NCBI RefSeq assembly: GCF_003334355.1 | Contig: NZ_QOWP01000003.1 | Strand: one strand, 5' to 3' | Length of the DNA stretch: 64,000 bases | From: Escherichia coli | GTDB taxonomy: Bacteria > Pseudomonadota > Gammaproteobacteria > Enterobacterales > Enterobacteriaceae | Shown here: positions 18,025 to 23,272 of the stretch, piece after piece | Position numbering within the stretch: the stretch's first letter is position 1 | Layout of the letters: every line of letters starts with the position of its first letter | Program-made: the position numbers and the translations under genes | The notes under the pieces: model-generated | Told to the model about the DNA's origin: nothing | Database searches by the model: none | Seen by the model: the letters and a program-made list of their open reading frames with translations, nothing else

Positions 18025-18102
18025 ATATTATTCCATATAGATTTAGTTTAAATATTAACAAAATGAATATTTGCAGTACATAATTATCTTACCAGCTATA
18101 GA

Positions 18103-18133
18103 CAAAAAAAAACCATCCAAATCTGGATGGCTA
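18103..18133 (-). terminator. Intrinsic terminator downstream of the island operon
   Basis: Minus-strand RNA reads ccatcc-agattt-ggatgg followed by a 9-nt T-run. Confidence 0.7.
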
Positions 18134-18213
18134 TTAAGAAGAACCAAAAATTTAACGCATGCATACGATAAAAAATGCGCCAGTCTACATACACTGACGC
18201 TAATGATTAGTCA

Positions 18214-19809
18214 CTACAAGTCTAACGACCGCTTCCACAACATAAAATCAAACTGTTCGAGTTTGTCTGCCTTCACGACGTAGTCCTTACTGGCAGTTTC
18301 AATAACTTTTTCAAATAATTCTCTACTCACATCTTCCAGCGGAGTGCCGTCAATCACTGGGCCACAGTCGAAATCAATCATGTCAGACAATCGTCTGGCA
18401 ATCGTGCTGTTGGTGGATATTTTTAACACCGGAACAATCGGGTTACCGGTGGGCGTACCAAGACCCGTCGAGAAGATAACCACATTACATCCTGCTGCTA
18501 CCAATCCGGTTACCGCGTCCACGTCATTGCCCGGAGTACACACCAACGATAATCCACTATCGGGCATAGGTTCAGCGTAATCGCATACACTCACAATTGG
18601 CGCTCGCCCGCCTTTTTTCGCTGCTCCGGTAGATTTTATTGCGTCAGTAATCAACCCATCCGCGATGTTGCCAAAACTTGGGTTATCCGCAATGGTGGTA
18701 TCGAAAAAGTTCGCTGTCTTTTCGTAGCCTTGCATTAGATTGAGGAACTTTTTTTTATCCTCAAGATTAATACAACGCTTAACCATATCACCTTCTGCCC
18801 CACATAATTCTGGAAATTCTGCTAACCCGGAAGCGCCACCAAGCGTTGTCAACCAGTCAGAAACCAGCCCCATTGCAGGGTTGCCGGAGATACCAGAAAA
18901 ACCATCGGAACCACCACACTTCATCCCCACTTTGAGACAGGAAAGAGGGACCTCTACTCTTTCTGTCGGCTTCACCGCTTTCATTGCCTCGAAAGTCTGC
19001 TGTAAAGCGGTCTGCATCATCCGCTCTTCGCTGTCCCACTCCTGTTGGAGAAAGTAGAGCGCAGGTTTATCAAATTCAGGATTACGTCTCGCCAGCGCAT
19101 CCTTAAACATTTTCTGCTGCGCTTTTTCACATCCTAAACTGAATACCGTCATACCGATTACATTCGGATGGTCAGCATAAGCAGCTAATACATCGCACAT
19201 AGTTTCACAGTCTGAAGTTGCACCACCACAACCACTGGTGACCGTAATACAGCGAACACCTTCAATATGCGGAAACATTCTCGCGGTTTCGATCAGTTCA
19301 TCGCTACCGGACGTCAGATTAAGAGCAAACTTTTTCAGTGAGTTATTGGTATAACCCAAAGCATCATTCAAAGCATTGGTTAACGTACTGACATTACGGT
19401 TCTCGCAAAATACCAATGGAAAGACTAACCAGTAACTGGCAGTACCCACTCTGCCATCGTCACGGACATAACCTTTAAAAGTGCGGGTGCTCCATTCAGA
19501 GACATCCGGTGCCTGCCAGTGGTAGGGTTCAACATCCTCCAGTGTGACAGGAGCTGCATAGTGGCGAATATTATCAACGGTAATCGCTTCTCCCTTAACG
19601 ATGGGACGCGTGGCCTTGCCAACTGGCGTACCGTACATCGAAACAATGCCATCCAGAGGAATATCTTGCGTCGCAAACTTATGTTTAGCCTTAACATCAG
19701 TTACTAACGTTATGTTGTCGTCATCCCACGAGAACGATTCTCCAGCGTGCAGGTCTTTCAACGCGACAATGAGATTATCGTTACTGTCGATACGTAATAT
19801 TTTTTGCAT
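18214..19809 (-). CDS. UxaA/GarD-family sugar-acid dehydratase (altronate/galactarate dehydratase-like; SAF N-domain plus dehydratase C-domain)
   Basis: About 531 aa; collinear with altronate dehydratase as I recall it (N-terminal MQKILRIDSNDNLIVAL…, central CGGSDG…NP, C-terminal GNDxDAVTGLVAAGCNVVIFSTG). Probable start at the second ATG (19807-19809), which has the better Shine-Dalgarno spacing. AT-rich. Confidence 0.8.
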   Translation of the reverse strand: MQKILRIDSNDNLIVALKDLHAGESFSWDDDNITLVTDVKAKHKFATQDIPLDGIVSMYGTPVGKATRPIVKGEAITVDNIRHYAAPVTLEDVEPYHWQAPDVSEWSTRTFKGYVRDDGRVGTASYWLVFPLVFCENRNVSTLTNALNDALGYTNNSLKKFALNLTSGSDELIETARMFPHIEGVRCITVTSGCGGATSDCETMCDVLAAYADHPNVIGMTVFSLGCEKAQQKMFKDALARRNPEFDKPALYFLQQEWDSEERMMQTALQQTFEAMKAVKPTERVEVPLSCLKVGMKCGGSDGFSGISGNPAMGLVSDWLTTLGGASGLAEFPELCGAEGDMVKRCINLEDKKKFLNLMQGYEKTANFFDTTIADNPSFGNIADGLITDAIKSTGAAKKGGRAPIVSVCDYAEPMPDSGLSLVCTPGNDVDAVTGLVAAGCNVVIFSTGLGTPTGNPIVPVLKISTNSTIARRLSDMIDFDCGPVIDGTPLEDVSRELFEKVIETASKDYVVKADKLEQFDFMLWKRSLDL

Positions 19810-19842
19810 AATCATATTCTTCCAGTCAGATGTTCAATCTTA

Positions 19843-21144: not shown

Positions 21145-21194
21145 AAATAAATCCTTAGTTCTGTTGGTAAGATATTCTATTTATAGGTTTTATA

Positions 21195-22088
21195 TTATTT
21201 ATAATAATCGGTGACAGATAAAATTTCCTGCAATCTCCGGGATTGAATATCATCAAGTATATTAAATGGTGAAGAACACCGCTCTGATTGAATAACCCCC
21301 TTTAACTGAAGGGCTTTTTTGAAAGTGGGAATAAAAGGAGAATTCACGCTGTAAACGGCCATTAGTTGATCGACTATCTGCTGATGCTGCGCGACTGCAA
21401 GTAAATCGTCATTCGTGAATGCTTGCATCCAGGAGGCAAAAAATTCAGGGACAATATTGGATAAACCACCAATACAGCCATCTCCACCAGATAGTATGTT
21501 GTGGGCAAAATTATTGTCATATCCTGCATACACTTCAAAATGAGGGATATTTTTCTTTACGGTATTGATAACCTGCGCAGTATGGAAAGCATCAGGGACG
21601 GTATCTTTCATACCAATAATATTGGGATATTTATCTGCCAGTCGTAAACAAATCTCTGGTGATACGCTGTACCCGGTTCTCTCCGGGAAGTTATAAATAA
21701 AAATATGAGCCGGGGTTTGGCTTGCAATCGTACTGTAGAAATCAAAAATAGCTTCATCATCCAGAGGGAAATAATAAGGACTGATGATCATCACACCATC
21801 CAATCCTTGCTCCCAGGCGTAATTGGCCAGTGATATTGATTCATTGACGTCCATGCGACTGGCTCCGGCATAAACCTTCATATCGCCTCGGGAAAACTCA
21901 CTACAGGTTTTAATCATTTGGCGGGCGTTTTCCATATTAAGAGAAAAAAACTCACCAGTACTGCCCATCACAACAAACCCGGACACGTGATTTTTAATAA
22001 AATCATAAATCTGAGTGTTTTGCTCAGGATCGATTCGCCCTTGTTCATCAAATATGGTGACAACGGGGGTTATGTAACGACTTTTCAT
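21195..22088 (-). CDS. DapA/NAL-family class I aldolase/lyase (dihydrodipicolinate-synthase-like; 2-keto-3-deoxy-sugar-acid aldolase or KdgD-like dehydratase candidate)
   Basis: 297 aa; GSTGE motif, YNFP motif and a candidate Schiff-base lysine in IGMKDT; AT-rich. Confidence 0.8.
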   Translation of the reverse strand: MKSRYITPVVTIFDEQGRIDPEQNTQIYDFIKNHVSGFVVMGSTGEFFSLNMENARQMIKTCSEFSRGDMKVYAGASRMDVNESISLANYAWEQGLDGVMIISPYYFPLDDEAIFDFYSTIASQTPAHIFIYNFPERTGYSVSPEICLRLADKYPNIIGMKDTVPDAFHTAQVINTVKKNIPHFEVYAGYDNNFAHNILSGGDGCIGGLSNIVPEFFASWMQAFTNDDLLAVAQHQQIVDQLMAVYSVNSPFIPTFKKALQLKGVIQSERCSSPFNILDDIQSRRLQEILSVTDYYK

Positions 22089-22395
22089 GCCTACCTCATC
22101 ATAGTTTTATTGTTCATATATACAAACAACGTTTTTAAATACAAACTAAAATGAGTATACCCAACCTTAGAAATGAGTCAAATTTAGCCAATCACAGAAG
22201 TGATACAGATAAGCTATTGATATATTTGGAGTAATTATGTCAGAGACCTGCATAAAAAACAATCGCAGTTCTTTTTTTATCCGTTTTATGACCAGTATCA
22301 CGCTAAAAAAGGACTGATGGGCTCAACAGCAGTCAAGGAACGCGAGGGGGTTAATTTACTTGAATTATAATTCTCCCTAGAATGGTGCATTACTC
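22089..22395. promoter_or_regulatory. Divergent promoter/operator region of the island (iclR-like gene versus lyase-transporter-dehydratase operon)
   Basis: 307 bp AT-rich intergenic region between divergently oriented genes; contains a 26-codon ORF with a GGAG Shine-Dalgarno at 22237-22317. Confidence 0.5.
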
Positions 22396-23196
22396 ATGGT
22401 AAGGGAAATAGTCATTATGGAACATAAGCCTACCATCCGGGTGTTAGAGATACTGGAAGCACTGGCAGCGGAGAATCAGGGTGTTTCATTAACTCACCTT
22501 TCGGAAAAAACAGGCATCCTGAAAGGAACGATTTTTCCCATCCTCAAAACGCTGGTTGAACAGCGGTACATCAGTTATGACGCTAATACCCAGCTTTATA
22601 ATCTGGGGATCTCCTGCTCGATTCTGTCCCGTGCTTTCCTCGACAGATCGTACTGGTTAAAAATGGTTTACAAAGAGATGAACAACATTGTCAAAGAGTG
22701 CAATGAAGTTTGTCAGATGGGGATCCTGGACGGTGCAGATGTTTTATATATCAATAAGGTGCAGGCGGCACAAACCGTACAACTGGTTTCACATATTGGG
22801 ACTCGTCTGCCTGCTATCTATTCTGCGCTGGGAAAAGCCATTATCTGTGAATACAGTGATCAACAAATTCGGCAACTCTACCCTGACGGTTTTGTTCCCA
22901 TGACATCGTATAGCGTTACGACCCTGGAACAATTGCGCCAACAACTTGAGGATGCCAGAGTAAATGGCTATGCATTTGATAACAGGGAAATCAATGAGGA
23001 GACGGTATGTTATGCTGTTGCCTTAAAACAGCGAAATAAAACGCTTGCCGCCATCAGCATTTCAATACCCGTATTTCGTGCGACAAAAGAAAAAATTGCC
23101 GATGTCACGCGTATCCTGCTGAATGCACGTTCGCGTATTGAACAGGAACTCAACACCTTACAGGATATCAATATCGGTATTGATTCCCACCATTAA
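22396..23196 (+). CDS. IclR-family transcriptional regulator
   Basis: 266 aa with an N-terminal winged HTH region and a C-terminal IclR effector domain. The true start may be the ATG at 22417 (MEHKPTIR…). Confidence 0.8.
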   Translation: MVREIVIMEHKPTIRVLEILEALAAENQGVSLTHLSEKTGILKGTIFPILKTLVEQRYISYDANTQLYNLGISCSILSRAFLDRSYWLKMVYKEMNNIVKECNEVCQMGILDGADVLYINKVQAAQTVQLVSHIGTRLPAIYSALGKAIICEYSDQQIRQLYPDGFVPMTSYSVTTLEQLRQQLEDARVNGYAFDNREINEETVCYAVALKQRNKTLAAISISIPVFRATKEKIADVTRILLNARSRIEQELNTLQDINIGIDSHH

Positions 23197-23272
23197 GGGT
23201 ATTTTCCATTCGAAGCCCGATACGTAAAAATTATCGGGCTAACAAAATATCCATTGAATGGATAGCGATGAA

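Follow-up and report, generated by a model that had tools for sequence, protein, structure and literature searches.

Through the fuc locus of Campylobacter jejuni (cj0480c–cj0489, in plasticity region 2), L-fucose is metabolized to pyruvate and lactate and D-arabinose to pyruvate and glycolate, with excretion of L-fuconate (PMC11365321, PMC6946681). The locus encodes the divergently oriented IclR-family regulator FucR, a DapA-like protein (Cj0481), a split 'altronate hydratase' (Cj0482/83), an MFS protein (Cj0484), the L-fucose dehydrogenase FucX, the permease FucP, an amidohydrolase, a mutarotase and an aldehyde dehydrogenase (PMC11365321, PMC6946681). In vitro, L-fucose does not release FucR from its target, the promoter ahead of the aldolase gene (PMC12566272). 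The subject of this analysis is a four-gene block inserted between yjfI and rlmB in a 64,000-nucleotide stretch of an Escherichia coli contig (NZ_QOWP01000003.1; the whole stretch is referred to as the window). When gene types, and not sequence identity, are compared, the C. jejuni non-phosphorylative L-fucose/D-arabinose locus appears to be the closest described system. The block is best read as a cut-down, acid-importing form of this known non-phosphorylative sugar-acid pathway and not as a new kind of system.

The block (hereafter the island) and its genes have the following positions in the window.

18134–23272, no strand: inserted block of 5,139 bp, delimited by base-by-base comparison with the empty site; absent from K-12
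18214–19809, minus strand: UxaA/GarD-superfamily (COG2721) dehydratase of 531 aa, 'long UxaA' subfamily (Pfam, alignment, gene contexts)
19843–21144, minus strand: MFS transporter, putatively of the anion:cation symporter (ACS) type, 433 aa (NCBIfam, orthologue context)
21195–22088, minus strand: class I (Schiff-base) aldolase of the DHDPS/NAL family, 297 aa (PF00701, relation to YagE, motifs)
22417–23196, plus strand: IclR-family regulator, 259 aa (NCBIfam, RefSeq annotation, orthologue neighbourhoods)

These are the four open reading frames (ORFs) of the original prediction. Their coordinates and strands were borne out, as were the families to which they had been assigned: UxaA/GarD (SAF and GD_AH models), MFS (probably ACS-type, with TIGR00893 as best match below its cutoff), DapA (PF00701) and IclR. 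The single adjustment concerns the regulator, in which an in-frame ATG is also present at 22396, the start taken originally; the RefSeq annotation and the lengths of the orthologues favour 22417.

The gene types of the L-fucose pathway (UxaA-type dehydratase, DHDPS-type aldolase and divergent IclR regulator) are all present in the island in the same arrangement, and together with the MFS gene they give nearly the same layout as in C. jejuni. The island differs in that its dehydratase is one fused protein and not a split pair, and in its gene order of aldolase–MFS–dehydratase. Genes for a mutarotase, an L-fucose dehydrogenase, a lactonase, a FucP permease and an aldehyde dehydrogenase are also lacking, and without such a sugar-oxidizing front end the island cannot start from the sugar. 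A homologue search with the aldolase of a related Fusobacterium cluster reached no Veillonella or Campylobacter proteins, and no match to the C. jejuni locus was obtained when metagenome contigs were scanned with exact primers.

Two further groups of described or related clusters share the proposed chemistry or its components. PMC11199699 cites the FucH route of Veillonella ratti. It leads from L-fuconate through 2-keto-3-deoxy-L-fuconate (L-KDF) to pyruvate and L-lactaldehyde, the cleavage being due to a class I aldolase. This is the same chemistry as that proposed for the island, but the V. ratti cluster begins at L-fucose; the two were compared by description only. The non-phosphorylative L-fucose route of V. 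ratti, with a DHDPS/NAL-type L-KDF aldolase, was reportedly set out by Watanabe in J Biol Chem in 2020. Clusters found in Clostridium and Fusobacterium consist of genes for an IclR regulator, a KdgT-type transporter, a split SAF + GD_AH dehydratase pair, an FAH-family protein, a DHDPS-family aldolase and FucO. They have the aldolase (45–48% identity), the regulator (38–41%) and the operator in common with the island; they differ from it in the dehydratase pair, which is non-orthologous (35%), in the use of KdgT in place of an MFS transporter and in the extra genes for the FAH-family protein and lactaldehyde reductase. Sugar-oxidizing enzymes are absent from these clusters, so the acid is presumably imported.

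Within E. coli itself, the yjhIHG–yjhF and yagEF clusters resemble the island in combining an IclR regulator with a DHDPS-family aldolase, a dehydratase and a transporter, but the island aldolase is only 32% identical to YjhH and the regulator 24% identical to YjhI, the dehydratases there are of the IlvD/EDD type and the transporter is of the GntP type. The C2/C3 configuration of D-xylonate is, moreover, opposite to that of the acids proposed for the island. It was to these xylonate clusters that the original prediction had likened the locus; the shared logic stands, and YagE is the closest solved relative of the aldolase, but the closest known analogue is the non-phosphorylative pathway of C. 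jejuni and of anaerobes. The hexuronate system (UxaA, UxaC, ExuT and ExuR) has in common with the island the dehydratase superfamily, the Fe/Cys ligands and an MFS acid-sugar transporter, whereas UxaA and ExuT are 33 and 22% identical to their island counterparts, 2-keto-3-deoxygluconate (KDG) is phosphorylated there (KdgK/Eda) and the regulator is of the GntR type. The rhmRDTA genes (yfaXWVU) comprise an IclR regulator, a dehydratase, an MFS transporter and an aldolase for the conversion of the 6-deoxy-hexonate L-rhamnonate to pyruvate and L-lactaldehyde; the enzymes (an enolase-superfamily dehydratase and a class II HpcH-type aldolase) are not homologous to those of the island, and L-rhamnonate differs in configuration at C2/C3.

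Enzymes, transporter and regulator

The aldolase is proposed to be a candidate 2-keto-3-deoxy-sugar-acid aldolase acting on L-KDF or 2-keto-3-deoxy-D-pentonate (D-KDP). The match to YagE (E = 3e-48) is about 15 orders of magnitude better than that to any DHDPS. The GSTGE(F), YNFP and GMKDT motifs are kept, the last of them carrying the Schiff-base lysine, and the marks of the DHDPS/NAL class I enzymes (PF00701, the lysine, the tyrosine and G(S/T)TGE) are thus all present. The protein scored below every NCBIfam cutoff: 165.6 against 206.15 bits for DapA, 150.6 against 281 and 118 against 382 for NanA, 132 for the archaeal KDG-aldolase model, and 85.3 against 373.95 and 88.5 against 278 for the two KdgD models. 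Orthology to YagE/YjhH was not supported, identity to YjhH being as low as stated above while relatives of 45–54% identity sit in other cluster types. The arginine of a PERTG motif, at a position that we take to be R138 of DapA, was considered as a marker of a dicarboxylate substrate and rejected, because the same arginine occurs in the Fusobacterium orthologue that adjoins a lactaldehyde reductase gene.

The dehydratase is predicted to be Fe-dependent and is proposed as a candidate L-fuconate/D-arabinonate dehydratase. The domains PF08666 (SAF), PF04295 and PF20629 (the latter two being the GD_AH second and C-terminal domains) were assigned on the 90%-identity E. coli cluster to which it belongs. 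Cys135, Cys194, Cys227 and Cys298 align with cysteines of E. coli UxaA and are invariant in 16 homologues; the iron ligands proposed for C785_RS13685 are Cys134, Cys173, Cys208 and Cys276 (PMC6336799). In the supplementary alignment of the same study, C785_RS13685 and Pden_4928 look like members of a different subfamily (PMC6336799). The characterized substrates of the UxaA/GarD superfamily are D-altronate, galactarate, D-arabinonate, L-fuconate, L-galactonate and D-threonate, all of which are (2S,3R) acids (PMC6336799, PMC10079672).

GarD is the sole NCBIfam model matched by the dehydratase and its best full-length solved-structure match, and KdgD enzymes belong to the DHDPS family. These matches would suit an aldarate pathway, in which the product of a GarD-like galactarate/glucarate dehydratase would pass to a KdgD-like decarboxylating dehydratase, with 2-oxoglutarate semialdehyde as the result. 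Such a pathway is considered very unlikely. The GarD equivalog model TIGR03248 gave 221.7 bits against a cutoff of 730.85, the KdgD models scored lower than those for DapA, NanA and KDG aldolase, the aldolase has YagE as its best structural relative, and no 2-oxoglutarate semialdehyde dehydrogenase gene was found in the island or in any orthologous cluster inspected. The decarboxylating dehydration that had been retained as an option in the original prediction was judged unlikely from the KdgD scores and from this absence.

The transporter is proposed to be a sugar-acid importer. Its best NCBIfam match was TIGR00893 (2.A.1.14, the ACS group) with 257 bits against a cutoff of 395, and HpaX gave 251 bits. 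The regulator, proposed to be a repressor of the divergent operon, gave full-length matches to the NCBIfam models BhcR, KdgR, PcaR and IclR, all of them below the cutoff; PF09339 and PF01614 (HTH_IclR and effector domain) were identified in its Morganella orthologue (72% identity).

No island protein is close to a characterized enzyme (the best being the 33% to UxaA and 32% to YjhH), which agrees with the original view of the module as uncharacterized. The database names carried by the exact island sequences are all generic or conflicting, namely 'altronate dehydratase', 'dihydrodipicolinate synthase', 'AllR', 'RhmT' and 'KDG regulon repressor', of which 'RhmT' belongs to an entry for a fragment of the island transporter. 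Literature searches on the RefSeq protein accessions and on the gene combination found nothing, and a search on L-fuconate and growth of E. coli found no work on this module; closer characterized relatives may stand in the papers by Watanabe in J Biol Chem (2020) and Mol Microbiol (2019).

Promoters and a conserved palindrome

Promoter, terminator and repeat searches of the island gave the following elements.

22154–22181, minus strand: sigma-70-like promoter of the aldolase–MFS–dehydratase operon, TTGACT-16-TATACT, 10/12 matches (promoter scan)
22112–22127, no strand: putative IclR operator O1, palindrome GTTTGTATATATGAAC, 3' of the −10 element and 5' of the aldolase start codon
22131–22146: putative operator O2, a degenerate copy GTTTGTATTTAAAAAC (minus strand), 19 bp from O1 and of the same direct-repeat family
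22355–22383, plus strand: promoter-like site for the regulator, TTTACT-17-TAGAAT, 9/12 matches (promoter scan)
18177–18200, minus strand: the operon's own intrinsic terminator, an 8-bp stem plus T-run, 14 nt past the dehydratase stop codon (terminator scan)

The TTGACT −35 box of the operon promoter is kept in Morganella, Klebsiella and Sodalis. The site assigned to the regulator is tentative, since the region holds about as many promoter matches as expected by chance.

The sequence GTTYGTATAWAYGAAC matches once in the 64-kb window, at O1 (chance expectation 0.18 at two or fewer mismatches). With zero to few mismatches it occurs at the same position upstream of the operons of Morganella, two Klebsiella, Sodalis, Desulfovibrio, Clostridium and Fusobacterium, and a second tandem site is also found in Klebsiella, Desulfovibrio, Sodalis, Clostridium and Fusobacterium. 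The consensus is a 16-bp palindrome, GTTCGTATATACGAAC, which usually has a weaker second copy beside it and lies 3' of the −10 element. Copies outside the window were located at 6698–6713 of the Morganella morganii locus (L004), at 6707–6722 of the Klebsiella oxytoca locus (L005), at 7936–7951 of locus L093 and in the upstream regions of loci L094 and L095. From its conservation and position, GTTCGTATATACGAAC looks like an IclR operator shared across phyla, of which no description was found. Such a shared operator would place the regulators in one cross-phylum regulon type, and this in turn argues for a common effector and hence a common pathway intermediate.

Gene neighbourhoods and the acid substrate

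A profile search of genome contigs with the dehydratase supplied the context statistics given here. The matches listed are mostly homologues of 45–58% identity and are not a measure of the full taxonomic spread. Among them, all of the Burkholderiales/Neisseriales homologues (53–58%) and many of the Bacteroidota homologues (45–48%) adjoin genes for UxaC and/or a UxaB-like reductase, and such neighbourhoods often also contain KdgK and a GH28 pectinase. It follows from this linkage that the 'long UxaA' subfamily consists mostly of altronate dehydratases of the galacturonate pathway. The dehydratases that are partnered by DHDPS-family aldolases form a single clade nested within this subfamily (neighbour-joining tree, no bootstrap). 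D-Altronate has the same C2–C4 configuration as L-fuconate and D-arabinonate.

If D-altronate, or another acid of the hexuronate pathway, were the substrate, the dehydratase would yield KDG and the aldolase would cleave it, non-phosphorylated, to pyruvate and D-glyceraldehyde. The altronate dehydratases marked by UxaC/UxaB are indeed the nearest context-defined relatives beyond the aldolase-linked clade, the archaeal KDG-aldolase model was among those matched by the aldolase, and YagE was named a KDG/2-keto-3-deoxygalactonate (KDGal) aldolase by its depositors. Nevertheless, this alternative appears quite improbable. Among the matches listed, neither UxaC nor UxaB was found near the island, near orthologues of at least 66% identity or in the aldolase-linked clusters, and the accessory genes of related clusters are specific to fucose or lactaldehyde. 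E. coli already has a route through UxaA and KdgK/Eda (uxaA itself was seen), and free D-altronate is no known environmental nutrient.

The fucose and lactaldehyde links come from four independent contexts. In a metagenomic locus (L098), a dehydratase homologue of 62% identity is flanked by an SDR-family protein scoring above the cutoff of the L-fucose dehydrogenase equivalog (408 > 300) and by an L-fucono-1,5-lactonase near its cutoff (353 of 400). In Orbus hercynius, the MFS (71%) and dehydratase (63%) genes are followed by an aldolase gene and then by a lactaldehyde reductase gene whose product passes the cutoff (704 > 537). In Fusobacterium, the aldolase (45%) and IclR (41%) genes adjoin that of an iron-dependent alcohol dehydrogenase which likewise passes the lactaldehyde reductase cutoff (672 > 537). 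A Desulfovibrio metagenome-assembled genome contains the aldolase (54%), the IclR regulator (45%) and a fused dehydratase (61%) with an MFS protein of a different family, after which come genes for a fuconolactonase-like amidohydrolase and for an aldo-keto reductase. The aldolase and the regulator thus co-occur over very different clusters, and it is the dehydratase partner that varies.

The five best solved relatives of the Desulfovibrio aldo-keto reductase are all L-galactose dehydrogenases, and L-galactonate has the (2S,3R,4R) configuration of L-fuconate. Watanabe et al. have inferred an L-galactonate dehydratase within the superfamily (PMC6336799). L-Galactonate would be dehydrated to 2-keto-3-deoxy-L-galactonate and cleaved to pyruvate and L-glyceraldehyde, as in the fungal galacturonate pathway. 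However, the lactaldehyde reductases of Orbus and Fusobacterium and the L-fucose dehydrogenase equivalog of L098 indicate a 6-deoxy compound, and E. coli has a separate route for L-galactonate (LgoT/LgoD). This reading is regarded as being just as improbable as that of an altronate pathway.

A wider choice of substrates is suggested by the enzymes themselves. D-Threonate is also dehydrated by UxaA-family D-arabinonate dehydratases (PMC10079672), specificity within the superfamily shifts readily (PMC6336799), and the E. coli module has no accessory enzyme that would fix the substrate. Another (2S,3R) acid (D-threonate, L-xylonate, D-idonate or D-tartrate), or several acids used promiscuously, is nonetheless unlikely, as no gene context points to any of these while the four contexts above point to fucose or lactaldehyde.

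By these gene neighbourhoods, the acidic sugar of the original prediction can be narrowed to L-fuconate/D-arabinonate. This assignment is given a little better than an even chance of being correct; within it, L-fuconate is the likeliest substrate and D-arabinonate a probable co-substrate. Several observations weigh against it. The assignment is wholly one of guilt by association. Lactaldehyde reductase also reduces glycolaldehyde, and its presence does not discriminate between L-fuconate and D-arabinonate. To our knowledge, free L-fuconate is not established as a nutrient available to E. coli. The island dehydratase is roughly equally similar to context-defined altronate dehydratases (57%) and to the homologue in the fucose cluster (62%). 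Superfamily enzymes that are 67% identical can have different substrates, as in the case of a D-arabinonate and a D-idonate dehydratase (PMC6336799). Finally, the aldolases of the two most informative loci, those of Orbus and L098 (L099 9652–10554 and L098 12808–13701), belong to another DHDPS subfamily and are 28–34% identical to that of the island. The pairing of two DHDPS subfamilies with the same 'long UxaA' clade looks like non-orthologous displacement of the aldolase step, and it mirrors the exchange of fused and split dehydratases seen beside the island-type aldolase.

The general scheme, in which an acid sugar is imported, dehydrated and aldol-cleaved, is held with high confidence. With L-fuconate/D-arabinonate as the substrate, the putative MFS anion symporter would import a (2S,3R) acid of the 'L-galacto/D-arabino' configuration, namely L-fuconate and probably D-arabinonate. 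The iron-dependent UxaA-type dehydratase would convert L-fuconate to L-KDF and D-arabinonate to D-KDP, and the class I aldolase, by way of its lysine Schiff base, would cleave these to pyruvate and L-lactaldehyde or glycolaldehyde, respectively. AldA or FucO, core enzymes of E. coli whose genes lie outside the window, would handle the aldehyde. The IclR regulator would repress the operon from the two tandem copies of GTTYGTATAWAYGAAC just 3' of the −10 element, with a pathway intermediate, probably the 2-keto-3-deoxy acid, as the effector that releases it. An intermediate is proposed as the effector because of the behaviour of FucR, which L-fucose does not release, and by analogy with the D-xylonate operons of E. 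coli, the regulators of which are reported to have a 2-keto-3-deoxy intermediate as their natural effector (PMC13279387).

Insertion site, distribution and spread

In K-12 MG1655 and K-12-like genomes yjfI directly follows rlmB, with a spacer of 126 bp between them, as the original prediction had held in calling the K-12 junction empty. At the left edge the sequence is collinear with K-12 to position 18133, that is, through the rlmB terminator hairpin, and at the right edge the block runs up to the rlmB stop codon, a TAG where K-12 has TAA; approximately 21 bp of the K-12 spacer have been replaced by the block. An insertion had been placed at 18025–23272; it is there, but its true bounds are 18134–23272, positions 18025–18133 being conserved K-12 intergenic sequence outside it. 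Two further hairpins lie at or near the edges.

18111–18132, minus strand: ancestral rlmB intrinsic terminator (terminator scan), identical to the K-12 spacer up to 18133
23214–23240, no strand: perfect hairpin with a 9-bp stem (inverted repeat) between the convergent regulator and rlmB genes

The first of these is conserved flank and not part of the island, and it now stands 3' of the island operon; it is the element that had been taken for the operon terminator (18103–18133), an assignment that has to be given up in favour of the terminator at 18177–18200. The second is probably a transcription stop or insulator and lacks the T-run of a canonical terminator. At the 3' end of rlmB (23251–23275) a short palindrome, ATCCATTGAATGGAT, follows the stop codon in place of the usual strong terminator, and the insertion has therefore altered the termination of rlmB transcription. 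A hairpin 3' of rlmB within the island was considered as a trace of ancestral presence at this site and rejected, its resemblance to the K-12 rlmB terminator being too weak.

At 43.9%, the GC content of the island is the lowest of any 5-kb block in the window, the remainder of which has 51.7%. GC at third codon positions is 0.39–0.47 in the island genes and 0.61 in rlmB/rnr. The AT-richness that had been noticed is thus real. The core gene yjfI (17623–18024) is itself AT-rich (39% GC), and 5-kb windows centred there reach GC values as low as that of the island, so that the island boundary could not have been recognized from low GC alone. The ORF list for 18134–23272 contains no ORF beyond the four and no integrase, transposase or insertion sequence (IS) element, and a repeat search found no terminal direct repeats at either island end, in line with what had been seen at first inspection. 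On either side lie the core genes yjfI and rlmB, and the site is an intergenic spacer, so that the classical marks of a mobile island (integrase or transposase, tRNA target and flanking repeats) are absent.

By megablast, the island is present in 520 of 5,426 complete E. coli genomes, with 513 of the copies full length and carrying intact annotated genes. All 520 copies are at least 99% identical, and every locus inspected holds the island at the same rlmB–yjfI junction. The carriers include strains labelled with the sequence types (ST) ST167, ST361, ST1193 and ST70. Compared with an ST1193-labelled strain the island shows 0–4 differences per kb and the flanking core genes 10–25, and compared with an ST70 strain the figures are 3–12 and 20–28 per kb. 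As the island is less diverged than its flanks, the block must be younger than the lineages that carry it; this low divergence, with the near-identity of all copies, points to a single entry, after which the block moved from lineage to lineage at this one site, presumably through homologous recombination in the flanking sequence. One of the 520 copies has a plasmid record, the others being chromosomal, which may reflect either real mobilization or an assembly or labelling artefact.

The empty K-12 junction and the non-uniform GC content agree with the original description of a horizontally acquired, uncharacterized sugar-acid module, and the relatives of the dehydratase point to acquisition from another Enterobacterales lineage. 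The nearest of these are in Leminorella (88%) and Morganella/Providencia (about 81%), and further close relatives occur in Yersinia intermedia, Chania, Klebsiella oxytoca, Sodalis and Commensalibacter. Morganella and Klebsiella have the same four-gene module at unrelated chromosomal sites, and Commensalibacter has the aldolase–MFS–dehydratase trio with a LysR-type gene nearby in place of IclR. To judge from these loci, the module travels as a unit.

Some of these loci have features of their own. In K. oxytoca (L005, 157–16314) the module lies between apparent ugp and liv operons, a core junction other than that used in E. coli, and the regulator is co-directional and not divergent; ugp encodes a glycerol-3-phosphate and liv a branched-chain amino acid ATP-binding cassette (ABC) transporter. 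In M. morganii (L004, 216–4559) a CBASS-like four-gene defence cluster (SMODS/DncV-like nucleotidyltransferase, ThiF/E1-like protein, JAB protein and SAVED effector) lies about 1 kb from the module, with one small gene between them. Sodalis ligni (L012, 5724–8947) has a degraded copy, in which IclR is cut to 112 aa and the aldolase (56%) was detected by tblastn only, without a called gene. Within E. coli, IS3-family insertions were seen between or within the MFS, aldolase or dehydratase genes (IS2 in H33 and H34, ISEc52 in H79), and the module is thus being inactivated in some lineages.

These IS2/ISEc52 insertions and the degraded S. ligni copy are what might be expected of a decaying or silent remnant without present function. 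For the island as a whole such an explanation is most unlikely: nearly all of the E. coli copies are full length with intact genes, the promoter, operator and terminator are intact, and the island has spread between lineages.

Returning to L-fuconate/D-arabinonate as the favoured substrate, a more far-reaching reading can be offered only tentatively, and is on balance doubtful. It holds that the island is a stand-alone L-fuconate cross-feeding module by which some E. coli lineages (among them strains labelled ST167, ST361 and ST1193) scavenge L-fuconate/D-arabinonate in the gut and so occupy a niche closed to K-12-like strains, that Cj0484-type transporters are L-fuconate importers and that L-KDF is the shared effector of the cross-phylum GTTCGTATATACGAAC IclR regulon. 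These acids would stem from fucose-oxidizing microbes, C. jejuni among them, or from the action of host L-fucose dehydrogenase.

Conceptually the island is an ordinary accessory sugar-acid operon built from known enzyme families. If the proposed function is correct, about 10% of E. coli, including globally spread multidrug-resistant clones by name, would have a nutrient niche that the reference strains miss, with a bearing on gut colonization and on competition over mucin-derived fucose. Testable functions would be provided for four misleadingly named proteins, a role would be suggested for the MFS protein of the Campylobacter fucose locus, and an operator would be defined for a widespread IclR regulon.

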